DNA of 63,958 nucleotides, filler included, from Thermodesulfobacteriota bacterium (GTDB lineage: Bacteria > DASVDK01), in NCBI GenBank assembly GCA_036381125.1. It is 5 parts of 5 records of this genome, joined end to end, with 100 filler letters (N's around TTAATTAATTAA, not from the genome) between each part and the next. Parts side by side here need not be neighbours in the genome. Positions count along the whole stretch, not along the records: positions 48,750 to 61,761 come from DASVDK010000111.1; 4 more parts are not named here. One strand, 5' to 3'. The translations under genes and the position numbers were made by a program. The notes under the pieces are model-generated. The model was not told the DNA's origin and ran no database searches. It was given only the letters and a program-made list of their open reading frames with translations. Below, in pieces: positions 28,785 through 60,458 of the stretch (positions are counted from its first letter, which is position 1; every line of letters starts with the position of its first letter).

Positions 28785-29183
28785 GCCCTGTACCTGGCCC
28801 ACGCCGTCGTGGCGATCCCGCTCGTGGTGGTGGTCGTCGCCTCGGCGCTCAGGACGTACGACCGGACCGTCGAGCTGGCGGCGCGCAGCCTCGGCGCCGG
28901 CTACGTCCGGACCCTCCGGTACGTCACCCTTCCGCTCCTCAGGCCGGCCATCCTCTCGGCCGCGGCCTTCGCCTTCCTCGTCTCGTTCGACGAGGTGATC
29001 CTCGCGATCTTCCTCGGCGGCCCGTCGGCGACCACGCTGCCGAAGAAGATGTGGGACAGCGTGCGCTACGAGATCGACCCGACCCTCACCGCCATCGCCA
29101 CCCTCCTGGTCGTCCTGTCCGTCGTCGTGCTCGCCGTGGCGGAGCGGCTCAGGTCGCGCTTGACACGCAATCTACACTTCTAG
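28785..29183 (+). CDS. ABC transporter permease, PotC-like (5' truncated)
   Basis: EAA-loop-like 'ELAARSLGA', 'FLVSFDEV', 'TLPKKMW'. Confidence 0.85.
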   Translation, partial: ALYLAHAVVAIPLVVVVVASALRTYDRTVELAARSLGAGYVRTLRYVTLPLLRPAILSAAAFAFLVSFDEVILAIFLGGPSATTLPKKMWDSVRYEIDPTLTAIATLLVVLSVVVLAVAERLRSRLTRNLHF

Positions 29184-29195
29184 CAAGATCGAAAC
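29160..29195 (+). promoter_or_regulatory. arsR promoter/operator (TTGACA-N18-CAAGAT overlapping imperfect palindrome TTCTAG..ATCGAA)
   Basis: -35 match; ATG 6 nt after the -10; no SD. Confidence 0.5.
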
Positions 29196-29534
29196 ATGAG
29201 CCCCGACACCGAGATCGCCCGCTACGCGGCCATGTTCGCCGCCCTGGGTCACGAGGCGCGGCTGGCCATCATCCGCCTCCTGCTCGCGGCCCATCCCGTC
29301 GGGATGGTGGCCGGCGAGGTTCAGGAGGAGCTCGGCATCCCCGCCTCCACCCTGTCGCACCACCTCGACACCCTGAAGCAGGAGGGCCTGGTCGAGCAGC
29401 GGCGCGAAGGGAAGTACCAGCGCTACGTCGCGGCGGCGGACGGGCTTCGGGACCTGCTCGGGTTCCTCTACGCCGAGTGCTGCACCCGGAGTCAGGTCGT
29501 GCCCCTTTCGGCGCTGCGCCGCAAGCCCTCGTGA
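29196..29534 (+). CDS. arsR: ArsR/SmtB regulator with C-terminal vicinal Cys pair
   Basis: 'FAALGHEARLAIIRLL', 'STLSHHL', 'LYAECC'. Confidence 0.85.
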   Translation: MSPDTEIARYAAMFAALGHEARLAIIRLLLAAHPVGMVAGEVQEELGIPASTLSHHLDTLKQEGLVEQRREGKYQRYVAAADGLRDLLGFLYAECCTRSQVVPLSALRRKPS

Positions 29535-38991: not shown

Positions 38992-39334
38992 CTCCCCAAA
39001 GAACTCTCGGTCTCCGCCGAGCCTTCTCGCACGCTAGCATGGGGTCGAGTGACCCGTCAAACGGGGAGCATGCGACCCCTTTGCCGCTCCGCGACCAGGC
39101 TGTTGACACATCGCAGATACGACCGATAGGCTGGATGCATGGTCGCCTCCGGCGGCCGCCATCGGCCTGGCCGGACCGACCCCCGGACCTCGTCCGGCTC
39201 CCCGCCCACCGCCCGGCCGGTCCCTCCCCGTAACCTCACGGACGCCGGCCGCTCGCGCAGGGCCCGGGGTCTGCACTCGCCAGACGCGCCCCGGCTTGCA
39301 GCCGGGCGCCCGGCTGTATTGGGGGGGATCCACC

Positions 39335-48649: not shown

Positions 48650-48749
48650 NNNNNNNNNNNNNNNNNNNNNNNNNNNNNNNNNNNNNNNNNNNNTTAATTA
48701 ATTAANNNNNNNNNNNNNNNNNNNNNNNNNNNNNNNNNNNNNNNNNNNN
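48650..48749. other. Artificial contig linker
   Basis: N44-TTAATTAATTAA-N44. Confidence 0.99.
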
Positions 48750-49351
48750 AGCGCCCCCGAGATGAGCCGCGTCAGGTAGGCCGAGATCGCCCCCACGTTC
48801 TGCGAGATCGACATCTCGTTGTCGTTGAGCACGACGACGAGATCGGTGTCGAGGTGCCCGGCGTTGTTGAGCCCCTCGAAGGCGAGGCCCCCCGTCATGG
48901 CGCCGTCGCCGATCACCGCCACGACCTTGCGCGGCCCGGCCGCCGTGAGGTCGCGCGCCACGGCCATGCCGAGCGCCGCCGAGATCGACGTGGAGGCGTG
49001 GCCGGCGCCGAACGTGTCGAACTCGCTCTCCTCCCGGCGCAGGAACCCCGACGCGCCGTCCTTGAGGCGCAGCCGCTCCATGGCCGCGCGCCGGCCGGTG
49101 AGGAGCTTGTGCGCGTAGGTCTGGTGCCCCACGTCGAAGACCAGGCGGTCGCGCGGCGCGTCGAAGACGTAGTGCAGCGCCACGATGAGGTCGACCATGC
49201 CGAGCGGCGAGGCGAAGTGCCCCCCCGTCCTGGAGACGATGCGGGTGATCTCGGCTCGGAGTTCGGCCGCGAGGGCCGGCAGTTCGTCACGCCGCAGGGT
49301 CTTCAGGTCAGCGGGGGACTGGATCCGATCGAGCAGTGGGGTGGCCGACAT
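48750..49351 (-). CDS. dxs: 1-deoxy-D-xylulose-5-phosphate synthase (3' truncated)
   Basis: 'GGHFASPLG', 'DVGHQTY', 'GHASTSISA', '[17 protein letters not shown]'. Confidence 0.95.
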
Positions 49352-49502: not shown

Positions 49503-49760
49503 CTACTGCCCGCGGTCGAACGCGGGGCGCTCGGCGTTCGGGTACTGGACGATGCGGACCGAGTCGGTGTACGCGGCGGTCGTCCGGCCGTCCTCCTCGC
49601 CGTTGGTCACCGCGCCCTGGCCGCGGGTCGACAGCTCCGGGGCCGAAACGATCTGCACCGGCTGCGTCTTCTCCTTTGCGACCTCGTCGATCGGGGCCGC
49701 GAACGCCGTCCCGGCCGCAAGCGTGGCGGCCGCGGCAAGGGTAAGGGCAAAGGTCTTCAT
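49503..49760 (-). CDS. Small secreted hypothetical protein (85 aa)
   Basis: GAGGAG RBS; signal peptide [21 protein letters not shown]. Confidence 0.75.
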
Positions 49761-49858
49761 GGTCGGTCTCCTCGAGTCTTCGGATCCCTGGGGATCACTC
49801 GACATCTGCGGCGCGGGTCACCACGACCCGCCGTCCGCGTTCCTCGGGAGACGGGAGG

Positions 49859-49875
49859 AGCATCAGGCGTGCCGC
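49859..49875 (-). promoter_or_regulatory. Sigma54-like -24/-12 promoter (CGGCACGCCTGATGCT)
   Basis: GG-N10-GC spacing with GGCAC. Confidence 0.5.
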
Positions 49876-50064
49876 CCCGGTCGCGCCCGGGCGCGTGCAC
49901 GAAAAGCGCACCAACGGCGGGTCGTTGCGGCGACGGGGCGCGAGGCGGCCGATGACGCGACCCACCAGCGCCCCGCGGCACGGTGCAGGTTGAAACGTCC
50001 CGCGGTTTCCCTGGAACGCCTACACCGTTCTGGCCGCCGTTGTGACGACAACCGCAAACCGGCC

Positions 50065-50114
50065 GGGGTCGGGTCTTTCCATTTTCCGCGGCCACGGAAC
50101 GCCGAGACCCGACC
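50065..50114. repeat. REP/REPIN-like inverted-repeat element, copy 2
   Basis: GGGGTCGGGTCTTTCCATTTTCC...AGACCCGACC. Confidence 0.6.
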
Positions 50115-50119
50115 GGGAG

Positions 50120-51622
50120 CTAGTAGCGCGGCACGGAGGGGTCCACGTCGGTCGACCAGCGGTCGATGCCGCCCGCGAGGTTGGCGAGCTTGCGGAAGCC
50201 GGCGGTCCTGAGGAACTCGATCGCCTGGGCGCTCCGGACGCCGGTCTTGCAGTGGACGACGATGTCGTCCGCCGAGCTGAGCTCGTGGACCCGCGCGGGC
50301 AGCTCGGACAGCGGGATGAGCTTCGCGCCGGGGATGCGAGCGATCTCCCACTCGGGCAGGTTCCGGACGTCGAGCACGACGACGCCGTCGCCGCGGTCGA
50401 GTCGCGCCTTGAGTTCGGCCGGCGTGACCGACGGGATGTCGGCCGCGACCTCGGGCCCATGGGCGACCGGGCCGACGCCGCAGAACTGCTCGTAGTCGAT
50501 CAGCTCGTGGATGGTCCGCTCGGTGCCGCAGATGGGGCACTCCGGGTTCGCCTTGATCCGCAGCTCGCGGAACCGCATCCGGAGCGCGTCGAAGAGGAGC
50601 AACCGCCCGAGGAGCGGCTCGCCCTCGCCGAGGATCAGCTTCACGGTCTCCGCGGCCTGGATGAGCCCCACGATGCCCGGCAGGATCCCGAGCACGCCCC
50701 CCTCGGCGCAGGACGGCACGAGGCCGGGCGGCGGCGGCTCCGGATAGAGGCACCGGTAGCAGGGCCCGTGGCCGGCCCAGAAGACCGTCGCCTGACCGTC
50801 GAAGCGGAAGATGCTCCCGTAGACGTTCGGCTTGCCGGTAAGCACGCAGGCGTCGTTCACGAGGTACCGGGTGGGGAAGTTGTCGGTGCCGTCGACGATG
50901 ACGTCGTAGTCCTTGAAGAGGTCGAGTGCGTTCGCCGACGAGAGCGGGAACTCGTGCGCCTCGACCCGGACCTCCGGGTTGATGTCGACGATGCGGTCGC
51001 GGGCGCTCGCGATCTTGGGGCGTCCGACGTCCTTGGTGCCGTGGATGACCTGACGGTGGAGGTTCGTGTAGTCGACCACGTCGAAGTCGACGAGGCCGAG
51101 CGTCCCCACGCCGGCCGCGGCCAGGTACATGCCGAGCGGCGAGCCGAGCCCGCCGGCCCCGATGCAGAGCACGCGCGCGGCCTTGAGCCGCTTCTGCCCG
51201 GCGAGGCCGACCTCCGGCATGATGAGGTGCCGGCTGTAGCGCAGGATCTCGCCCTGCGACAGGGTCACGTCGGAGATGTCCCGCGCCACGGTCGGCTTGC
51301 CGTTGACGCCCTGCGCCGCGCCGGCCCCGCGCCCCTGGTCGACGGCGCCGCCCGCGATGGCCGGGACGAGCGACAGGCTCTGGCCCTCGCGCACCGGCGT
51401 GTCGAGCCCCTGCCGGTCGTGGATGCTCTCGTCGCCGACGAAGACGTTCACGAAGTTCCGCAAGGTCCCGCCCTCGGTGAAGAGCTGCGTGCGGAGGTCC
51501 GGGTAGCGGGCGGTCAGGGCGGCGAGGACCTGCCCCGCGGTCTCGCCCTGCGCCGTCACCTCCGCCTGCCCGCCGGCGAACGCCCGCAGCGGCACGGGGA
51601 TCTGCACGGTGATCTGACTCAT
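50120..51622 (-). CDS. moeZ: MoaD/CysO-like ubiquitin fold fused to MoeZ (MoeB adenylyltransferase + rhodanese)
   Basis: N-terminal 'FVNVFV..VPAIAGG'; 'RYSRHL', 'GAGGLG', CYRC; rhodanese 'HCKTGVRS'. Confidence 0.9.
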   Translation of the reverse strand: MSQITVQIPVPLRAFAGGQAEVTAQGETAGQVLAALTARYPDLRTQLFTEGGTLRNFVNVFVGDESIHDRQGLDTPVREGQSLSLVPAIAGGAVDQGRGAGAAQGVNGKPTVARDISDVTLSQGEILRYSRHLIMPEVGLAGQKRLKAARVLCIGAGGLGSPLGMYLAAAGVGTLGLVDFDVVDYTNLHRQVIHGTKDVGRPKIASARDRIVDINPEVRVEAHEFPLSSANALDLFKDYDVIVDGTDNFPTRYLVNDACVLTGKPNVYGSIFRFDGQATVFWAGHGPCYRCLYPEPPPPGLVPSCAEGGVLGILPGIVGLIQAAETVKLILGEGEPLLGRLLLFDALRMRFRELRIKANPECPICGTERTIHELIDYEQFCGVGPVAHGPEVAADIPSVTPAELKARLDRGDGVVVLDVRNLPEWEIARIPGAKLIPLSELPARVHELSSADDIVVHCKTGVRSAQAIEFLRTAGFRKLANLAGGIDRWSTDVDPSVPRY

Positions 51623-52551
51623 GACTCCTCGCTCCAGAATCGCTCGCTCAGGTAACGTTCGCCCCCGTCCGGCAGGACGGTGACGATGATCGCGCCCGGG
51701 TGCTCGCGGCCGATGCGCAGCGCGGCCGCGAGCGCCGCGCCGCCGGACGGGCCGATGAAGACGCCCTCCTCCCGCGCGACGCGCCTGACCAGCGCCTGCG
51801 CCTCCTCGGTGCGCATCCACAGGTTCTCGTCGGCCACGCCCGGGTCGTAGATGGCCGGCACCAGGGCCGACGGCATGTGCTTGAGCCCCTCGAGCCCGTG
51901 GAACGGGCTGTCCGGCTGGACCGAGACGAGCCGGACGGCGCGTCCCTTCTCCGCCCTGAGCCGCCGCGCGACGCCGACGAAGGTGCCGGACGTGCCGAGT
52001 GCGGCGACGAAGTGCGTGAGGCGACCGCCCGTCTGCTCGAGGATCTCCACCGCCGTGCCGTCGTAGTGCGCTCGCCAGTTGGCCGGGTTCGAGTACTGGT
52101 CCGGGTAGAAGAAGCGGTCCGGGTCGGCCGCGAAGCGCCGGCGCGCCTCGCGGATGGCGCCGTCGGACCCCTCGGCGGCGGGCGTCTCGACGATGCGGAC
52201 GCCGTACGCCCTGAGGATCGCCTTGCGCTCCGCCGAGGCCGACGCCGGCAGGCACAGCTCCACCGCGTAGCCCTTCGCGGCGCCGATCCAGGCGTAGGCG
52301 ATGCCGGTGTTGCCCGACGTGGCGTCGAGGATCGTCTTGCCGCGGACGAGCCTCCCCGTTCGCTCGCCGTCGAGGATCATGCCCAGCGCGGCGCGGTCCT
52401 TGACCGAGCCGCCCGGGTTGCGCGACTCGAGCTTGGCGAGGATCGTCACGTCGGCGAGGCCGGCGGCCAGGCGGTCGAACCGCACGAGCGGCGTGTGACC
52501 GACGAGGTCCTCGATGCGCTGGCCGGCCGTCAGGGTGCCGATCGCCCGCAT
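51619..52551 (-). CDS. cysM: PLP-dependent cysteine synthase, CysM-like
   Basis: 'KLESRNPGGSVKDR', 'ATSGNTG', 'GTSGT', 'DGGERYLS'. Confidence 0.88.
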   Translation of the reverse strand: MRAIGTLTAGQRIEDLVGHTPLVRFDRLAAGLADVTILAKLESRNPGGSVKDRAALGMILDGERTGRLVRGKTILDATSGNTGIAYAWIGAAKGYAVELCLPASASAERKAILRAYGVRIVETPAAEGSDGAIREARRRFAADPDRFFYPDQYSNPANWRAHYDGTAVEILEQTGGRLTHFVAALGTSGTFVGVARRLRAEKGRAVRLVSVQPDSPFHGLEGLKHMPSALVPAIYDPGVADENLWMRTEEAQALVRRVAREEGVFIGPSGGAALAAALRIGREHPGAIIVTVLPDGGERYLSERFWSEES

Positions 52552-52629
52552 GGTTCGTTCATCTCCCGAAACCTCCGTCCGGGGCCGCCTCGCGTGCGGC
52601 CCCGGACGATGTGCCGGCATCCCGGCCCG

Positions 52630-53286
52630 TCAGGCGACCGACTTGCGGCTGAGGTACCAGTCGGTGACCTTGAGGTTCTTGTCGGCCACGCGCGCCTCGG
52701 CCGCCTGCTGGGTGGCAGGCGCCGGCACGATCACCTCGTCCCCCGGCCGCCAGTCGGCCGGCGTGGCCACCCCGTACCGGTCGGTCACCTGCAGCGAGTC
52801 GATCACCCGCAGGATCTCGTCGATGTTGCGCCCGGTCGACAGCGGGTAGTAGAGCAGCGCCCGCAGCTTCTGCTCCGGGTCGATGAAGTACACGCAGCGC
52901 ACGGTCGAGGTCACCGCCATCGGCTCGTGCACCATGCCGTAGAGGCGCGCCACCTTCTGGTCCAGGTCGGCGATGACCGGGAAGCCGATCTTCACGCCGA
53001 AGTTCTTCTCGATGTCGCGGATCCAGGCGATGTGCGAGTAGACCGAGTCGACCGACACGCCGATGAGCTGCACCCCCCGCCGCTCGAACTCGGCCTGGCG
53101 CTGGGCGAAGCCGCCGAACTCGGTCGAGCAGACGGGGGTGAAGTCGGCCGGGTGCGAGAAGAGGAGCACCCACTTGCCCTTGAAGCTGGACAGCTTGATG
53201 GGCCCCTGGGTGGAGTTGGCCTCGAAGTCGGGCACCGGCGCGCCGAGCTGGAGGACCGGCCGCGCGCTCACGTTCTCTGTCGTCAT
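52630..53286 (-). CDS. Peroxiredoxin, Prx6 subfamily
   Basis: 'FSHPADFTPVCSTE', 'YYPLSTGRN', 'TPADW'. Confidence 0.92.
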   Translation of the reverse strand: MTTENVSARPVLQLGAPVPDFEANSTQGPIKLSSFKGKWVLLFSHPADFTPVCSTEFGGFAQRQAEFERRGVQLIGVSVDSVYSHIAWIRDIEKNFGVKIGFPVIADLDQKVARLYGMVHEPMAVTSTVRCVYFIDPEQKLRALLYYPLSTGRNIDEILRVIDSLQVTDRYGVATPADWRPGDEVIVPAPATQQAAEARVADKNLKVTDWYLSRKSVA

Positions 53287-53319
53287 CGTTCTCTCTCCCT
53301 TTCCTTCCGCCGAACGCCG

Positions 53320-53353
53320 AAACGAAAAACGCCACGAGCGGGGCTCGTGGCGT
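53320..53353 (-). terminator. Intrinsic terminator of a putative attenuator
   Basis: Minus strand ACGCCACGAGC-ccc-GCTCGTGGCGT followed by TTTTCGTTT. Confidence 0.8.
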
Positions 53354-53394
53354 CCGGAAGATGCAAGAACTGTCGTCGGGGGGCGGACGGTAGC

Positions 53395-53514
53395 CTACGC
53401 GTCGGCCTGATCGCCCCTCCGGGCACTCCCGGACGGCCACGGCGCCGCTTGGGCGCCACAGCAACAGGGACACGCGCACAGGGCGCCAGCCATGTCCGGA
53501 AGAGGCCTGATCAT
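53395..53514 (-). CDS. Cys-rich leader peptide MIRPLPDMAGALCACPCCCGAQAAPWPSGSARRGDQADA
   Basis: 5 Cys codons within 7; lies between a promoter and a terminator upstream of cysteine genes. Confidence 0.7.
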   Translation of the reverse strand: MIRPLPDMAGALCACPCCCGAQAAPWPSGSARRGDQADA

Positions 53515-53520
53515 GTGCTC

Positions 53521-53549
53521 ATGCTCGCAGACGAGGCCCCGGCTGTCAA
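53521..53549 (-). promoter_or_regulatory. Promoter TTGACA-N17-GAGCAT, placing +1 at about the leader ATG
   Basis: Perfect -35; -10 keeps the -11A and -7T; ATG 6 nt downstream. Confidence 0.55.
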
Positions 53550-53605
53550 TTGCCCCGCCCCGGGGCCCGGGCCCCGGGTCGCGGCCGCGACGCCCCGCCT
53601 CGCCG

Positions 53606-54598
53606 TCAGGTGCGCCGAAGGTACCCGTTGGACTCGAACCACTGCACGGCCCGGGCGACGGCTCCCTCGATGGGTGACTGGGGGAGCCCCAGCTCCGCGA
53701 CCGCCCTGGCCGAGCTGAAGTACATGGACCTCGCGGCCATCCGGACCCCCTCGAGGGGGATCCGGGGGTGACGGCCCGTGATCCGGTCGGCAACCATCTG
53801 GCTCACCCAGGCCGCCGGGAGCACCGCGGCGACCGGCAGGCGCAGGCGCGGCGCCCGTCGGCCGGCGGCCGCGGCCACCAGCCCGAGGAACTCGACGAGG
53901 CGCATGTTGCGGTGGCCGAGGATGTACCGCTCCCCGACCCGGCCCTTCTCGGCGGCGAGCAGGTGGCCGACGGCGACGTCGTCGACGTCGACGAAGTTCA
54001 GGCCGGTGTCGACGTAGGCGGGCATCCGGCCGGTCAGGAGGTCGACGATGATCCGCCCGGTCGGCGTCGGCTTGACGTCGCCCGGCCCAACCGGCGTCGA
54101 GGGGTTGACGATGACGACCGGCACGCCCCGGCGCGCCGCCGCCTCGGCCTCCCGTTCCGCGAGGAACTTGCTCCGCTTGTAGTGGCCGACCATCTCCTCG
54201 AGACGGACCGGCGTCGTCTCGGTCCCGACGCCGCCCCGCGGGACGCCGAGGGCTCCCACGGAGGAGGTGTAGACGATGCGTCCGACGCCGGCCCGGTGGG
54301 CGGCGGCCAGGAGATGGCGCGTCCCGTCGACGTTCGACGCGTAGAGCGCCGCGGGGTCACGGGTCCAGAGCGCGTAGTGTGCGCCGACGTGGAAGACGAG
54401 CTCGCACCCGGCGACCGCGCGGGCGAGCGACTCCGGGTCGCGCAGGTCCCCCTCGACCCGCTCGACGTCGAGCCCCGCGAGGAGCCGGGTGTCGGAGCCG
54501 GGGCGGACGAGCACGCGCACCCGGTCGCCGCGAGCGACGAGGCGGCGGACGACCGCGCTGCCGATGAACCCGGTGCCGCCCGTGACGAGGGTGCTCAT
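53606..54598 (-). CDS. hpnA: Hopanoid-associated sugar epimerase
   Basis: TGGTGFIG, YKRSK, 'VNPSTPVGPGDVKPTPTG'; cluster context. Confidence 0.88.
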   Translation of the reverse strand: MSTLVTGGTGFIGSAVVRRLVARGDRVRVLVRPGSDTRLLAGLDVERVEGDLRDPESLARAVAGCELVFHVGAHYALWTRDPAALYASNVDGTRHLLAAAHRAGVGRIVYTSSVGALGVPRGGVGTETTPVRLEEMVGHYKRSKFLAEREAEAAARRGVPVVIVNPSTPVGPGDVKPTPTGRIIVDLLTGRMPAYVDTGLNFVDVDDVAVGHLLAAEKGRVGERYILGHRNMRLVEFLGLVAAAAGRRAPRLRLPVAAVLPAAWVSQMVADRITGRHPRIPLEGVRMAARSMYFSSARAVAELGLPQSPIEGAVARAVQWFESNGYLRRT

Positions 54599-55593
54599 TC
54601 GGCCCGAGCGATCCCCCGGCGCGTGCGGCCGCGGCGCGAGAGGAGCGCAAGCCCGATGCCGGCCCAGAGCAGCTCGCGCGCCCGGCGCAGGACGCTGTAG
54701 CCGACCGAGACGGCGAGCGGGTAGCCGAACCCGGCGAACACCAGCACGTTACCCCCCTCCTGCCCGCCGAGCGACGCCGGGATCACGAAGGTGACCGCCT
54801 TGGCGAGCCCCGAGAGCGCCTCGATGGCGAACGCGGCCTGGAGGTCGACGGACAGCCCCATGAGCGTGAGGATCGTCCAGGTCTCGGCCGTGCCGGCGAT
54901 CCAGGCGAGGAGATAGACGGCCGCCGACTGGTAGAGCCGCGCGCGGTCCTCGCGGTAGGAGCGCGCCACCCGCGCGTCGAGGTCGGCGATCGCCCCCGCC
55001 CGCGTGGCGGCCCACGCGGGGCGCAGGCCGGCGCGCTCCGCGAGCCGCATCAGGCCGCCGACGAACCCCTCCCGCTGGCGCCGCACGAGCCAGGAGACGC
55101 CGACCGCCGTGGCGGCCACGACGGCCGCGACCGCGGCCAGGAGGCTCGAGTCTCCCTCGAAGCGGCCGAGCGCCACGGCGACCCCGATCGTGACGAACAG
55201 CACCTGGGCGGCCGTCATGAGGGTGCGACCGATGATCACCGACGAGAGCCCCTCGGCCACCGGCACGGCCGGCGCCAGCCGGATCGCCTTCACCGGCTCG
55301 CCTCCGACGTACGCGGTCGGCGTGAGCGTGTTCACCGCCTCGCCGCTCAGCCGGGCCTCGAGGAGGGCGAGGAAGCCCACCCGCGCCGACCTCGGCAACG
55401 TGAGCCGCCAGGCGACGGTGTCGAGGAGCTGGACGACGGCCGACGGCACGAGGAAGAGCGGCCAGAGCGGCCCCATCGCTCCGAGGCGCTCGACGATGGC
55501 GGCAGGCCCGGCGTACCAGACGAACGCCACGAGGACGAGGACGCCGGTCGCGAAGAGCAGTCGCCGGGCCGCCCGTGAGGCGAGCCAGGCCAC
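54595..55593 (-). CDS. Flippase-like membrane protein (LPG synthase TM family, HpnL-like)
   Basis: 'GEAVNTLTPTAYVGGEPVK', 'IPASLGGQEGG', 'RRARELLW'. Confidence 0.78.
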   Translation of the reverse strand: MAWLASRAARRLLFATGVLVLVAFVWYAGPAAIVERLGAMGPLWPLFLVPSAVVQLLDTVAWRLTLPRSARVGFLALLEARLSGEAVNTLTPTAYVGGEPVKAIRLAPAVPVAEGLSSVIIGRTLMTAAQVLFVTIGVAVALGRFEGDSSLLAAVAAVVAATAVGVSWLVRRQREGFVGGLMRLAERAGLRPAWAATRAGAIADLDARVARSYREDRARLYQSAAVYLLAWIAGTAETWTILTLMGLSVDLQAAFAIEALSGLAKAVTFVIPASLGGQEGGNVLVFAGFGYPLAVSVGYSVLRRARELLWAGIGLALLSRRGRTRRGIARAE

Positions 55594-55596
55594 GCG

Positions 55597-56565
55597 TCAG
55601 CCCGCCTCCCCCGCAAAGGCCGCGAGGAGCGCCTCGAGGGCCCGCGCCGCGCGCGCCGCGCGAATGCCGGTGCCGACCAGGACCGGCAGCGACGCCGGAC
55701 GGCGCGCGAGATACCCGAGCGCGCGGTACAGCGGCGCGCGGCCGTCCGGGCTCACGAGCCGCCAGGCCTCCTCCGGGAGCGCGTCGCCGGCGGCGTCCGA
55801 GACGACGCGCACGGCGAGGAACGGCACGGACGCCTCCGTCGCGGCGCGCGCGACGCCGGCCGACTCCATGTCGACGGCGATGGCGCCGCTGTCGGCCGAC
55901 GCGGCGACCTTGTCGGCCGGCGTCGCCCGGACCCTTGCGACCGAGAGGAGCGGCCCGACGCGGAGGGGGAGCCCGGCGCGCCGCGCCGCCGCCGAGATGG
56001 CGGCCGCGAGCGAGGCCGACGGCCACCAGTGCGCCCGCAGCGTGGGGTCGACCACGGGATCGCCGATGACCACGTCGCCGACCGCGAGGGCCGGATCGAG
56101 GCCGCCGGCGAAGCCGACCGACAGCACGGCGGCCGGCCGTGCGGCCTGGATGGCCGACACGGCGGCGCCCGCGCCGAGCGGGCCGCCGGCCAGCCCGGTC
56201 CGCACGACCAGGATCGACGGGCGAACGCGCCCCTCGGGCGGCGCCCACACGAGCCCGGCGAACGGCATCGGCGCCGTCGGCACGAGTCGCGCGGCTCCGC
56301 GCAGCGCGCGGCCGAGCGCCTCCTGCTCGACGGCGAGCGCGGTGAGGACGAGGAGCGGCCCCGGGTGCCGGTCCGACCGCCGCCGGCCGCGCACCGCGGC
56401 TGGCCGGTCGGGGGCGACCGGCGGCAGGCGCACGGCGCCGGCGCGCTCGGCGAGCGCGGGCCGCGGAGTGGGACGCGCGGCCGCGGGCGGCGCCGCGGGT
56501 TCCTGGTCGGGTCGTTGCGTGGAAGGTCCGCCGTGGGCTGGATGCCGCGGTCGGGTCCCGTTCAT
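55597..56565 (-). CDS. hpnG: Nucleoside phosphorylase family protein, HpnG-like (start uncertain)
   Basis: 'SVGFAGGL', 'VDMESA', 'VRVVSD'; directly after shc. Confidence 0.72.
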   Translation of the reverse strand: MNGTRPRHPAHGGPSTQRPDQEPAAPPAAARPTPRPALAERAGAVRLPPVAPDRPAAVRGRRRSDRHPGPLLVLTALAVEQEALGRALRGAARLVPTAPMPFAGLVWAPPEGRVRPSILVVRTGLAGGPLGAGAAVSAIQAARPAAVLSVGFAGGLDPALAVGDVVIGDPVVDPTLRAHWWPSASLAAAISAAARRAGLPLRVGPLLSVARVRATPADKVAASADSGAIAVDMESAGVARAATEASVPFLAVRVVSDAAGDALPEEAWRLVSPDGRAPLYRALGYLARRPASLPVLVGTGIRAARAARALEALLAAFAGEAG

Positions 56566-56570
56566 GCCGG

Positions 56571-58562
56571 TCACCCCGCGCTGCGGACGGCCTTCGCGTA
56601 GAGGCCGAGCGCCCAGAGCGGAAACGTGTGCCGGTAGAGATGGTACCGCAGGTAGAAGACCCGCGGGAAGCCGGTGCCGGTGAAGGCCTCCTCGTCCCAC
56701 GTCCCGTCGGGCCGCTGCGTCGCCACCAGGTAGTCCACGCCGCGCGCCACCGCCGGGTGCCGCGCCATGCCGGCGTGCAGCAGCCCGAGCAGCGCCCAGG
56801 CCGTCTGCGAGGGGGTCGAGAGCGCCTCGGCGTCCCGGCCTTCGGCCTCGTAGCTGGCGCACGACTCGCCCCACCCGCCGTCGGCGCGCTGCCGGGCGAG
56901 GAGCCAGTCGACCGCCCGCCGCACGTAGGGCTGGTCCATCGGCTCGCCGATGGCGGCGAGCCCGGCCAGCACCGACCAGGTGCCGTAGAGGTAGTTGACG
57001 CCCCAGCGGCCGTACCACGAGCCGTCGGGCTCCTGCTCGCGGCGCAGGAACGCGATGGCCCGCGCCGCCGGGCCGAAGCGGCGGTCGTAGCCCACGTGGG
57101 CCAGGACCTCGAGGCAGCGCCCCGTGAGGTCGGCCGTCGGCGGGTCGAGCAGCGCGCCGTGGTCGGCAAAGGGGATCTGGTTCAGCACGAGCCGGTCGTT
57201 GTCCACGTCGAAGGCGCCCCACCCGCCGTTCGACGACTGCATGGCGAGCAGCCACGCCACGCCGCGGCGGACCGCCTCGGCCTCGGCCGGCGTCGTCGGC
57301 CGCGCGGCGCGCGTCATGGCGAGGAGCACCGCCGCCGTGTCGTCCACGTCCGGGTACCATGCGTTCTCGAACTGGAACGCCCAGCCGGACGGCTCGGCGG
57401 GCCGCGCGCGGTCGGCCCAGTCGCCCCGGCGGCGGACCTCCTTCGACGCGAGCCAGGCCGCGCCCCTGGCGAGCGCCGGGTGCGACGGCGCCAGCCCTGC
57501 CGCGCCGAGCGCGTTCATCGCGAGGGCCGTGTCCCAGACGGGCGAGAGGCAGGGCTGGACGCGCAGCCGGGCGGAGTCCTCGACGACGAGGCCGTCGAGC
57601 GCCGCGAGGCCGCGCGCGACGAGCGGATCGTCGAGCGGACGGCCGAGGTAGTGGAGCGCCATGACGGCGCCCGCCATGGCGGGGTAGATGGCGCCGAGCC
57701 CCCCCTCCCCCATGCGCGGCGTCATCCAGGCGAGGGCGGCCTCGATGGCGCGAGCACGCAGGCGCCCGCCCGCCGACCGCTCGTACCACTTGACCCCGCG
57801 CTCGGCCAGGAGGAAGAGGTTGCGCCAGGAGACGAGGGGGGCCGAGAGGCGGGGCAGCGGCGGCGCCTCGTCCGCCGCCGACCGCACCAGCTCGCCGCGG
57901 CCGACGTCCCCCGGCAGCCGGCGCACGGCGCGCAGCGACGCCAGGATCGAGAGCGGCACGAGCACGGTGCGCGACCAGTAGGACATCGCGCCGAGATGGA
58001 ACCAGGCCCAGCGCGGCAAGAGGACGATCTCCACCGGGATCGCCGGGACGCTCCGCCAGTCGAACTGCCCCACCATCGCGAACTGCGCCTTCGTGAAGGT
58101 GTTGACCGCGGGGAGCCCGCCCAGGTCGAGGACGAACCGGCGGGCGCGGCGCAGCGCGCGATCGTGCGCCGGGTAGCCCGCCGCCCGGAGCGCGAGGTAC
58201 GCCTTGGCCGTGGAGGAGACGTTGCTCGGCCCGCCGTGGTAGATGGGCCACCCGCCGTCGATCTGCTGGCGGTCGAGGATGAAGTACGCGGCCTTGCGCT
58301 CCTGGATGTGCCGCACCTGGCCGATGAAGTGGCGCATCAGGAGGTATTCGGCCGTGATGCTCACGTCGGCCTCGAGCTCGGCCACCCAGTGACCGTCCTC
58401 GTGCTGGCGCGCGAGGAGCCAGGCCGCCGCGCGCTCGATGGCGCGATCGACGCCGGCCGGCGGCGCCTGGACGGTGAGGTCGGCGGGCCAGTGCGCGCCG
58501 CGCCGCGGCGCGCCTCCGGACGGCGGCGCGCCGAAGCGGCTGATCAGGGAGAGGAACCGCAC
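56571..58562 (-). CDS. shc: Squalene--hopene cyclase
   Basis: 'SPVWDTA', catalytic 'YPDVDDTA', QW repeats, 'TGTGFPRVFYL'. Confidence 0.96.
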   Translation of the reverse strand: MRFLSLISRFGAPPSGGAPRRGAHWPADLTVQAPPAGVDRAIERAAAWLLARQHEDGHWVAELEADVSITAEYLLMRHFIGQVRHIQERKAAYFILDRQQIDGGWPIYHGGPSNVSSTAKAYLALRAAGYPAHDRALRRARRFVLDLGGLPAVNTFTKAQFAMVGQFDWRSVPAIPVEIVLLPRWAWFHLGAMSYWSRTVLVPLSILASLRAVRRLPGDVGRGELVRSAADEAPPLPRLSAPLVSWRNLFLLAERGVKWYERSAGGRLRARAIEAALAWMTPRMGEGGLGAIYPAMAGAVMALHYLGRPLDDPLVARGLAALDGLVVEDSARLRVQPCLSPVWDTALAMNALGAAGLAPSHPALARGAAWLASKEVRRRGDWADRARPAEPSGWAFQFENAWYPDVDDTAAVLLAMTRAARPTTPAEAEAVRRGVAWLLAMQSSNGGWGAFDVDNDRLVLNQIPFADHGALLDPPTADLTGRCLEVLAHVGYDRRFGPAARAIAFLRREQEPDGSWYGRWGVNYLYGTWSVLAGLAAIGEPMDQPYVRRAVDWLLARQRADGGWGESCASYEAEGRDAEALSTPSQTAWALLGLLHAGMARHPAVARGVDYLVATQRPDGTWDEEAFTGTGFPRVFYLRYHLYRHTFPLWALGLYAKAVRSAG

Positions 58563-58575
58563 GCCGCGCCCCCGG

Positions 58576-59586
58576 CTACGCGGTGAGTTGCCACCTGATC
58601 ATCTTGGGCAGGTCGGTGAGCGCCATCTCGCGCACGACCGTCGGCTCGACGCTGCAGTGCGCCATGCAGTTCCGGCAACGATCGTCGCGCCGGTTCTCGT
58701 ACTTGTCCCAGTCCGTGCGCGCCATGAGCTCCTCGAACGTCTTGTAGTGCGCGTCGGTGATGAGATAGCACGGTCCCTTCCACCCGCTGGGGGTGAAGGT
58801 CACGTTCCCCCACGGCGTGCAGCGGTACTCGCGCTTGCCCTCGAGGAACTCCATGTAGAGCGGCGTGTTCTCGAGCGGGAACTCGTCGGCGTGCGGGGCG
58901 ATCCGGCGGAACTTCTCCCGGATCACCTCCCGGGTGTCGAAGATGTCGACGCCCTTGAGGACCGTGTACTCGAAGGCCGGGGAGATGAGGTTGCCGTCGA
59001 CGCCGAGCCCCTTGAGGAACCGCATCAACTCGAGCACCTCGTCGGGGTCGGTGTCCTTGAACACCGTGGTGTTCGTGCAGACGCGGAAGCCGGCCGCCTT
59101 TGCCGCCTTGATCGCCTCGATCGCGATCCTGAACGTGCCCTTCCGGTTGAGGATGCGGTCGTGCGTCGCCTCCATGCCGTCGAGGTGCACCGCCCAGTTG
59201 AAGTAAGGCGAGGGCTTGAGCTTCGGCATGGTGCGCTGCATGAGGAGCGCGTTCGTACAGAGGTAGACGTGCTTCTTGCGCGCGACCACGCCCTCGACGA
59301 GCGGCACGATGTCCCGGTAGATCAGCGGCTCGCCGCCGCAGATGGAGACGATCGGCGCCCCGCAGGCATCGACCGCGGCGAGGCACTCCTCGACGCTGAG
59401 TCGTTCCTTGATGGTCGCTTCGTACTCCCGGATCCGCCCGCACCCTTCGCAGGCGACGTTGCAGAGCTCGGTCGGCTCGAGCATGAGCACGATCGGGTAC
59501 CGCGTGCGGCCGGCAAGACGCTGTTTGACGAGGTAGGTGGTCATCGACGCGTTCAGGGAGAGCGGATAGCGCATGCGAGACCTCAC
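58576..59586 (-). CDS. hpnH: Adenosyl-hopene transferase (radical SAM)
   Basis: 'LMLEP..CNVACEGCGRI', 'CTPWG', 'CRNCMAHC'. Confidence 0.92.
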   Translation of the reverse strand: MRSRMRYPLSLNASMTTYLVKQRLAGRTRYPIVLMLEPTELCNVACEGCGRIREYEATIKERLSVEECLAAVDACGAPIVSICGGEPLIYRDIVPLVEGVVARKKHVYLCTNALLMQRTMPKLKPSPYFNWAVHLDGMEATHDRILNRKGTFRIAIEAIKAAKAAGFRVCTNTTVFKDTDPDEVLELMRFLKGLGVDGNLISPAFEYTVLKGVDIFDTREVIREKFRRIAPHADEFPLENTPLYMEFLEGKREYRCTPWGNVTFTPSGWKGPCYLITDAHYKTFEELMARTDWDKYENRRDDRCRNCMAHCSVEPTVVREMALTDLPKMIRWQLTA

Positions 59587-60458
59587 CGTTCGGTCGGCCG
59601 ACTCGGCGGCGGCTCGGGCGAAGCCCGGCCGGCGTGCGAGCGATGCGGTGCATTATAGCGACTCTCTCGAAGGGACCGATCCAGCGGCCCTTGCGGTTGG
59701 CCGCTCGCGGCGCGACCGACACGCACGAGGAGCGCGACGGTCGGCACGAGCGTCACGGCGAGCCCCGCCGCGCCGAGCCGCCACTCGCCGACGGCGAAGG
59801 TCACGGCGAGATTGAAGGCGAGGACGCCGTAGTAGAGACCGACGCCGAGCCGAAGGCCGCCCGTCCCGAGCGGCCGCTCCGTGCCGCGGCGGGCGAGGAC
59901 GGCCTCGACGGCGGCGTGGCCGCCGATCCCGACGAGCCCGACGACGAACCACCCGGCGAAGTTCGCGGCCGGCACGCCGAAGTAGAACCCCTCGTGCGGG
60001 TAGGCGTAGATCAGACCGAGGAACCAGCGGTCCCCCCGCAGCGCGATCGGGTCGATGACGACGTCGAGGAGGGTGAGGAGCGCGGCGGCCAGCGCGACGG
60101 TGGCCGGGCCCCTGCTCGCGGCCTCACCCGGCGCCCGCGGCGCCCGGAGCACGATCGCCGTCGCGTACGCCGCGAAGGCGAGGAAGGTGAACGACAGGGA
60201 GTCCATGAACGGGACGTTCGCGACGTACAGCTCGCGGTCGCGCGTGTTCTCGAGGTAGGTGTAGAAGCCGAAGGGGATGCCGGTGCGCGTCGAGCTGTAC
60301 TCGGCCGCGAAGGCGGTGAGCCAGATCGTCGCGGTGAAGCGGGCGGTGCGCGCCGCGCCGAGCGCGACGCCGGCGGCGACGAGGAAGGCCGCGAGGAAGG
60401 CGAAGACGTACGGTCGGTAGAGGACCGTCTGCCAGAGGAGCCAGAGGACCTCGGCCAC
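59583..60458 (-). CDS. CruF/DUF422 'carotenoid biosynthesis' family membrane protein
   Basis: 'EYSSTRTGIPFGFYTY', 'DVVIDP', 'FGVPAANFAGW'. Confidence 0.78.
   Translation of the reverse strand: MAEVLWLLWQTVLYRPYVFAFLAAFLVAAGVALGAARTARFTATIWLTAFAAEYSSTRTGIPFGFYTYLENTRDRELYVANVPFMDSLSFTFLAFAAYATAIVLRAPRAPGEAASRGPATVALAAALLTLLDVVIDPIALRGDRWFLGLIYAYPHEGFYFGVPAANFAGWFVVGLVGIGGHAAVEAVLARRGTERPLGTGGLRLGVGLYYGVLAFNLAVTFAVGEWRLGAAGLAVTLVPTVALLVRVGRAASGQPQGPLDRSLRESRYNAPHRSHAGRASPEPPPSRPTER
59652..59657 (-). promoter_or_regulatory. TATAAT -10 box upstream of hpnH, inside the tail of the previous ORF
   Basis: Perfect TATAAT in a very GC-rich background. Confidence 0.4.

Follow-up and report, generated by a model that had tools for sequence, protein, structure and literature searches.

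A candidate cysteine-sensing transcription attenuator with a probably leaderless poly-Cys leader peptide ahead of a peroxiredoxin-cysteine synthase operon in a Thermodesulfobacteriota bacterium

The stretch of DNA analyzed here (the window) comprises 63,958 nucleotides (nt) from the Thermodesulfobacteriota bacterium assembly GCA_036381125.1. The minus strand of this stretch harbors, at positions 53320-53549, a leader region that precedes an operon encoding a 1-Cys-type peroxiredoxin (prx), a CysM-like cysteine synthase (cysM), and a CysO-like sulfur carrier fused to a MoeZ-type enzyme (cysO-moeZ). We propose, with a probability of about 0.7, that this leader is a ribosome-mediated transcription attenuator of the trp/his type that would sense charged tRNA-Cys. 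The proposal is supported in silico by statistics, RNA folding, one close relative, and independent analogues.

Transcription attenuators that depend on a leader peptide control amino acid operons, such as trp in Escherichia coli and his in Salmonella. The leader in the window resembles these attenuators in combining repeated codons for the end product with an intrinsic terminator ahead of the first gene and mutually exclusive 1:2, 2:3, and 3:4 pairings; unlike them, it would read cysteine, it lacks a Shine-Dalgarno sequence, and its ORF probably begins right at the RNA 5' end. An earlier inspection of the same DNA (the sequence-only reading) had proposed this geometry, and the layout is indeed present, at every coordinate given there, and statistically supported, as detailed below.

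The leader open reading frame (ORF), which the sequence-only reading had described as 39 codons long with the motif C-A-C-P-C-C-C, carries cysteine at codons 13, 15, 17, 18, and 19, that is, five Cys in seven codons ahead of the cysM-like gene and the cysO-moeZ fusion. In the six frames of the window, this is the sole 7-codon stretch with at least four Cys, and likewise the sole one with at least five (1 of ∼128,000 codon positions, with Cys accounting for 1.74% of all-frame codons). The Cys codons of the leader are two TGC and three TGT, compared to 88 TGC and 3 TGT in 25 well-supported genes (12,044 codons), and the G+C content at third codon positions (GC3) is 0.77 versus 0.85 to 0.99 in genes. 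Thus, the leader is not an ordinary protein gene by its codon use and GC3. A second in-frame ATG is found within the ORF at 53493.

The promoter suggested by the sequence-only reading was recovered in full: TTGACA and GAGCAT are separated by a 17-nt spacer, and the ATG follows 6 nt on without a Shine-Dalgarno sequence. This promoter is absent from the output of a strict promoter scan because the -10 hexamer fits TATAAT at only three of six positions. The pattern TTGACA-N16-18-NANNNT occurs four times in the window, versus 0.19 expected, and none of 100 shuffles reaches this number. At three of the four sites, the ATG lies exactly 6 nt after the -10 hexamer; these sites precede the leader ORF, a gene for an ArsR-type regulator (Pfam HTH_20, E 1.3e-13), and one further frame of unclear coding status. 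The leader at the fourth site is 47 nt long and includes a Shine-Dalgarno sequence. A relaxed search for leaderless-type promoters added no other clear case. Given that the 6-nt geometry is common to three of the four TTGACA promoters, the promoter and leaderless initiation appear plausible in this organism on the evidence of its sequence. The two other 6-nt promoters, one of which precedes the ArsR-type gene, are located at 29160-29198 and 39103-39141, both on the plus strand; in the frame that does not encode the ArsR-type regulator, the GC3 signal shifts to another frame after ∼150 nt, a possible frameshift or short upstream ORF.

An intrinsic terminator separates the leader ORF from the first structural gene, in agreement with the earlier claim of a hairpin and U-tract before the operon; the hairpin measures 13 pairs, and the prx ATG at 53286 is located 34 nt past the U-tract. 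A terminator scan of 52500-54000 detected this one site, versus 0.3 expected. Among nine terminator-like sites in the 40 kb scanned, it is the sole one with more than 9 pairs, the other eight having 5 to 9 pairs and occurring at chance level (4 found versus 3.6 expected; 5 versus 3.2).

Three further segments of the leader can engage in alternative pairings. Segments 1 and 3 can both pair with segment 2 because they share a 10-nt direct repeat (53504-53495 in segment 1, identical to 53361-53352 in segment 3). The pairing of 53441-53429 with 53357-53346, which had been proposed as an antiterminator, is exactly in place: the 2:3 duplex has an energy of -30.3 kcal/mol compared to -19.0 ± 2.4 in 2,000 dinucleotide shuffles of the leader, none of which reaches the observed value. 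The elements proposed to sequester segment 2, namely, the competing hairpin 53433-53418 and the upstream CCGGAC, are present as well, and the 1:2 duplex, at -39.1 kcal/mol versus -29.05 ± 3.25, is matched by 10 of the 2,000 shuffles. The antiterminator shares nucleotides with the 5' arm of the terminator and replaces the terminator in constrained folds.

In the free leader, the predicted fold consists of the 1:2 hairpin (P 0.96) and the terminator (P 0.97). When a ribosome footprint is masked at Cys13 or Cys15, the minimum-energy fold changes to a long 2:3 helix and the terminator is lost, whereas masking at the stop codon brings back 1:2 and the terminator. The ribosome was then moved along every codon under two models, in which either the RNA 5' of the ribosome was omitted or only the footprint was masked. 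With the 5' RNA omitted, the antiterminator is dominant (0.69 to 0.96) for A-site codons 2-18, with values of 0.92 to 0.96 for codons 13-18, and the terminator is dominant (0.74 to 0.99) from A-site codon 19 onward. Given this switch point, the Cys run occupies the last positions at which a stalled ribosome would still permit read-through. In the mask-only model, codons 14-15 favor the antiterminator, but codons 17-19 leave the terminator at P 0.97, with 1:2 closing round the ribosome, an arrangement that appears sterically unlikely. Folding with masked segments, as suggested by the sequence-only reading, switches the fold at Cys13 and Cys15, restores the terminator at the stop codon, and leaves the terminator in place for codons 17-19 in the mask-only model.

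From these observations, we infer where transcription begins, that the ORF is translated, and that ribosomes stall and cysteine supply is sensed, as follows. Transcription would start at the ATG at 53514 or immediately next to it, with a ribosome loading onto the 5' end of the RNA. With ample cysteine, the ribosome would pass the seven-codon Cys-rich stretch, cross segment 2, and stop at 53397; segment 1 would re-pair with segment 2 behind it, the terminator and its U-tail would form, and most transcripts would end before prx. Conversely, when Cys-tRNA is scarce, the ribosome would stall on the Cys codons (13-18) and keep segment 1 off segment 2, which could then pair with segment 3, so that no terminator would form and RNA polymerase would read into prx, cysM, and the cysO-moeZ fusion.

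Table 1. Features of the leader region and the operon, in window coordinates
Feature	Position	Strand	Remarks
-35-like hexamer TTGACA	53544..53549	-	same in the close relative among the differences listed
-10-like hexamer GAGCAT	53521..53526	-	3/6 TATAAT matches; ends 6 nt before the ATG; same in the close relative among the differences listed
Leader ORF, 39 codons + stop TAG (53397-53395)	53395..53514	-	ATG 53514; no Shine-Dalgarno sequence; probably leaderless
Segment 1 (5' strand of the anti-antiterminator)	53481..53508	-	includes upstream CCGGAC, 53499-53494
Regulatory Cys run C-A-C-P-C-C-C	53458..53478	-	codons 13-19; 2 TGC, 3 TGT
Segment 2	53422..53446	-	pairs with segment 1 or segment 3; includes 53441-53429 of the sequence-only reading
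Local 6-bp hairpin	53418..53433	-	able to sequester part of segment 2; not in minimum-energy folds
Segment 3 (antiterminator partner of segment 2)	53343..53361	-	stretch just 5' of the terminator plus terminator 5' arm
Intrinsic terminator	53321..53355	-	13-pair hairpin 53355-53327 (8 G-C, 3-nt loop) + U-rich tail; -22.4 kcal/mol
Purine-rich Shine-Dalgarno region + prx ATG	53284..53308	-	pairs with 53372-53356 in the terminator fold (z -3.09)
prx, 1-Cys-type peroxiredoxin, operon gene 1	52630..53286	-	Pfam AhpC-TSA + 1-cysPrx_C; NCBIfam peroxiredoxin
CysM-like cysteine synthase (pyridoxal phosphate enzyme)	51619..52620	-	hit to TIGR01138 cysM under its curated cut-off (E 1e-101)
ThiS/CysO-like sulfur carrier fused to MoeZ-type adenylyltransferase-rhodanese	50120..51622	-	start overlaps the cysM stop

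The leader was also compared with that of a close relative. Contigs of four runs were aligned to 52600-54000, which yielded one close relative lineage, ∼95% identical, from metagenomes X2 and X3. The X2 contig extends over 53136-53998 and differs from the window by 44 letters and 12 gaps; the X3 contig covers 52600-53448 and has identical differences in the overlap. Between 53549 and 53287, the 16 listed substitutions and 4 insertions or deletions (indels) all lie outside the 103 of 263 nt taken as functional, that is, the two hexamers, ATG, upstream CCGGAC, Cys run, segments 2 and 3, terminator, and U-tail. The chance that all these changes would spare the functional positions is 4.8e-5 for 20 separate events and 1.6e-3 when the changes are clustered into 13. 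The Cys run and the terminator are unaltered among the differences listed, the terminator in both X2 and X3. The leader frame is open and free of indels, and the stop codon TAG is replaced by TAA at the identical position; leader codons 2, 8, 11, 12, 21, and 22 are changed, every one altering the amino acid.

These changes bear on the possibility that the ORF gives rise to a small, cysteine-rich peptide with a function of its own, such as a metal- or redox-active one, that is co-expressed with the operon. Five cysteines in seven residues could bind metals, and the frame is retained in the relative, but all six altered codons change the amino acid outside the Cys run, the codon use departs from that of genes, the segments of the RNA switch overlap the ORF, and a search with the ORF and three more in-frame codons as the query yielded no candidate homologue among predicted proteins of 23 to 74 residues. 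We consider such a peptide very improbable.

A different way in which the leader could act is suggested by the fold of the terminator state, in which the prx ribosome-binding region pairs as well, its partner being the CU-rich stretch 53372-53356, part of which is taken by segment 2 in the other state. Hence, a second, translational layer of control is possible. If this layer were the main one, as in mycobacteria, the leader fold would hide the prx ribosome-binding site, stalling would free it, and the hairpin would be little used as a terminator. The only experimentally dissected poly-Cys leader is reported to work in this manner (Canestrari et al. 2020, bioRxiv 10.1101/834739). Nevertheless, the hairpin, with its 13 pairs rich in G+C and the U-run behind it, is a canonical terminator and the strongest in the 40 kb, and the predicted hiding helix lies within a stretch that varies in the relative, which has indels (53315, 53307, 53296, and 53368) and substitutions there, with the terminator left untouched. 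A mainly translational mode appears quite unlikely on these grounds, although the two modes are not mutually exclusive.

A search with the peroxiredoxin identified 252 relatives, of which 80 (best identity, 72%) were kept; cysM and moeZ are located near prx in only 1 of the 80, L071, where they are divergent from prx, and in the 20 of 80 for which 500 nt upstream of prx were searched, no stretch has more than three Cys in seven codons. A CysM search of metagenomes produced 41 loci with 50 to 68% identity, and a plus-strand scan of L081-L162 (390,675 nt) detected 16 Cys-dense frames, each of which falls within a gene, runs antisense to one, or lies past the operon on its downstream side. These frames were judged by coordinates and by inspection of L118, L133, L135, L140-L142, L144, and L145; for L085, L091, L093, L119, and L153, position was the sole criterion. 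In six soil metagenome loci (L126, L127, L128, L134, L136, and L150), a conserved stretch of ∼25 nt is located ∼20 to 60 nt upstream of cysM, just before the start codon. This stretch has no Rfam family match; we take it to resemble the partly palindromic sites of Rrf2-family (IscR/CymR-type) repressors.

A MoeZ relative was found in 256 of 401 Myxococcota genomes (63 to 67% identity; loci with 1.5-kb flanks only). The fused cysO-moeZ is common in Acidobacteriota, with matches in 66 of 251 genomes at E 1e-160 or better (best identity, 66%); each of these tallies includes one unpublished genome, G201 and G611, respectively. In 4 of 20 Acidobacteriota cysM-cysO/moeZ loci for which 5 kb upstream was examined (L190, L196, L197, and L198), an ORF of 24 to 34 codons with 8 to 10 Cys is located directly before cysM. 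A TTGACA-N17-TATAGT promoter precedes this ORF in L190, L197, and L198, and a strong hairpin with a U-run follows it in all four. In L197, the stretch just past the Cys run is, by eye, complementary to the terminator 5' arm, and L190 and L198 share nearly the same stretch. At another locus, L188, an 8-codon ORF with four Cys precedes the fused gene. The Acidobacteriota leaders resemble the leader in the window in the order cysM then fused cysO-moeZ and in the layout of promoter, Cys-rich ORF, a segment past the Cys run that appears complementary to the terminator 5' arm, and terminator; they differ from it in carrying 8 to 10 Cys codons and a leader before the ATG, and are not homologous to it in sequence or structure. 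A covariance model, R1, built from the L190, L197, and L198 leaders matches 3 of 151 Acidobacteriota genomes. R1 also picks Phe/Tyr-rich short ORFs followed by terminators in Acidobacteriota, in L204 (∼1497-1672) and L206 (∼1491-1680), one of which precedes a gene with a chorismate mutase-like N terminus; by their sequence, these two elements are probably aromatic amino acid attenuators.

Several observations weigh against the attenuator reading. The -10 hexamer GAGCAT is weak. Unlike in the trp and his attenuators, the Cys codons fall into the loop that separates segments 1 and 2 rather than into segment 1 itself, and the terminator persists at codons 17-19 in the mask-only model; the switch therefore needs the steric argument that no helix closes round the ribosome. 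The stop codon, in a further departure from trp and his, is located 29 nt past segment 2, so that termination in plenty would rely on 1:2 re-forming rather than on masking of segment 2. RNA run X20 has no cover of ∼53258-53775, its contigs lying only on conserved parts of prx, from which nothing follows on leader expression. The conservation of the elements holds among the differences listed and for one lineage. In the 41 metagenome cysM loci, no Cys-run leader precedes the operon, and the same is true of L186, the only Acidobacteriota locus with the prx-cysM-moeZ order. Accordingly, the expected conservation of the Cys run upstream of orthologous operons stands for the ∼95% relative and fails for these loci. 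Finally, a cmsearch of the window with R1 gave three weak matches elsewhere (E 0.035 to 1.2) and none at 53320-53549.

Some of these points, along with others, fit a non-regulatory origin, in which the ORF is untranslated or without a regulatory role, the Cys run is accidental, and the terminator with its competitors is a protein- or ligand-responsive switch or the end of transcription of the hopanoid-linked cluster upstream. The gap in X20, the missing Shine-Dalgarno sequence, the atypical codon use, the failure to find a small-protein homologue, and the absence of the leader from more distant relatives would all be compatible with this explanation. It is unlikely, however, in view of the five Cys in seven codons that occur nowhere else in ∼128,000 codon positions and yet stand before a cysteine synthase operon, and of the relative, which retains the frame, ATG, and stop position despite six amino acid changes. 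Furthermore, the terminator lies ∼250 nt beyond the stop codon of the upstream gene, behind a promoter-like site, and no Rfam family matches the leader, the whole window, or the loci of nine relatives. The preferred reading remains that of an attenuator.

The R1 result also rules out the leader in the window as a member of the Acidobacteriota poly-Cys cysM leader family. Taken together with the separate Acidobacteriota leaders, this non-match implies that the device evolved repeatedly before the same operon type: judging from the sequences compared, it appears to have arisen more than once, and the copy in the window is an analogue rather than a homologue.

Cysteine supply is sensed by proteins, such as CysB and CymR, or by T-box and S-box RNAs. 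To our knowledge, ribosome-based cysteine sensing has been shown experimentally only in mycobacteria. There, polycysteine leaderless ORFs are cysteine-responsive attenuators that form a "Cys ribulon," the precedent invoked by the sequence-only reading; the precedent is as stated there, but the mechanism of the dissected case is translational, freeing a hidden ribosome-binding site, not terminator based, and the mode at other loci is left open (Canestrari et al. 2020). The likeness to the leader in the window extends to a short, apparently leaderless ORF that lacks annotation, carries consecutive Cys codons, and forms the first cistron before cysteine genes: at least two consecutive Cys codons upstream of a cysteine-related operon characterize the mycobacterial ribulon and are found here as well. 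Transcripts of the mycobacterial class start with the AUG or GUG of the short ORF; for the leader in the window, the corresponding geometry is an ATG placed 6 nt after a -10-like hexamer, which is also seen at the ArsR-type gene. The sensor in mycobacteria is the ribosome pausing on Cys codons, and the same is proposed for the leader in the window. Unlike the mycobacterial case, however, the leader in the window has a canonical terminator/antiterminator pair, and the host, with 72.7% GC and an Omp85-domain gene, is not an actinobacterium.

Related predictions have been made in other bacteria. The uORFC-8-2 motif, located upstream of cysS in Rhodobacterales, is a predicted ribosome-mediated attenuator (Brewer et al. 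2021, PMC8632094). Like the leader in the window, it has conserved Cys codons near codon 14-15 of the upstream ORF (uORF) and a terminator stem with a U-run; it differs in having two tandem Cys codons before cysS, as opposed to five Cys in seven codons before prx-cysM-cysO/moeZ in an unrelated organism, and the leader in the window is not located upstream of cysS. Candidate Cys leader peptides upstream of cys and cbs operons in Actinobacteria (Seliverstov et al. 2005, PMC1262725) are likewise short ORFs with Cys-codon runs before cysteine genes; they are described as lacking terminators, with Rho-dependent termination suggested, whereas the leader in the window has a strong intrinsic terminator. 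Regulatory cysteine codons in Mycobacterium tuberculosis leaders are also mentioned by Eckartt et al. 2026. Literature searches under cysteine leader peptide or attenuator wording found no paper, although supplements may list further loci, and those on ribosome-mediated attenuation, cysteine, uORF, and intrinsic terminator found nothing on cysM/cysO operons. Thus, attenuators with Cys-codon leaders are already known or predicted, and what may be new is that a leaderless start is joined to a terminator switch of the classical type.

The genes around the leader were assigned by Pfam and NCBIfam, which bore out the claim of a prx-cysM-moaD/moeZ operon downstream of the terminator. The sulfur carrier is joined in frame to its activating enzyme. 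No gene for a JAMM/Mec-type protease is present within the operon, and small downstream frames at 49757-50095 and 49503-49805 have no Pfam match. The 1-Cys peroxiredoxin adjoins CysM/CysO-MoeZ genes in three contexts: it belongs to the same operon in the window and in the Acidobacteriota locus L186 (G722) and is divergent from mec-cysO-moeZ-cysM in L092 (G005), a Planctomycetota metagenome-assembled genome. Farther downstream, a 217-residue frame at 48698-49351 (minus strand) aligns to the N-terminal portion of DXP synthase alone (positions 1-193 of a 274-position profile) and is followed by the Omp85-domain gene, so that dxs looks truncated. The diderm-type gene content, with this Omp85-domain gene and 72.7% GC, agrees with the earlier statement that the host carries outer-membrane genes and is not a mycobacterium. 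The identity of its ProS did not exceed 58% in any of the groups compared.

Upstream of the leader, the intergenic gap extends over 319 nt, from the stop codon of an NAD-dependent epimerase-family gene at 53606 to the prx ATG. This gene belongs to a hopanoid-linked cluster at 53606-60458 (minus strand) that also includes genes for a squalene-hopene cyclase, HpnH, a phosphorylase-family protein, and a lysyl-phosphatidylglycerol-synthase-type membrane protein. A G+C-rich hairpin at 53600-53552, after the stop codon of the upstream gene, was considered as a signal of a separate transcription unit and rejected: it is no better than shuffles (z -0.39) and so gives no evidence for such a unit.

A broader reading is tentative, and we hold it with clearly less than even confidence: the leader may be a previously undescribed hybrid of a leaderless poly-Cys sensor, as in mycobacteria, and an enterobacterial-type terminator switch, and one of many independently evolved leaders in an unrecognized, multi-phylum soil cysteine "ribulon"; in the window, it would link a peroxiredoxin with cysteine synthesis by the thiocarboxylate (CysO) route. 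If the attenuator reading is true, the occurrence of a poly-Cys leader with a terminator in an unrelated soil bacterium that is uncultured would alter the picture of cysteine sensing, as would the independent Acidobacteriota versions. Together, the leader in the window and the Acidobacteriota versions suggest that cheap, easily evolved ribosome sensors may govern sulfur amino acid genes far more widely than recorded. The element would also identify prx, cysM, and the cysO-moeZ fusion as a single unit under cysteine control and would support a link between peroxide defense and the thiocarboxylate cysteine route.

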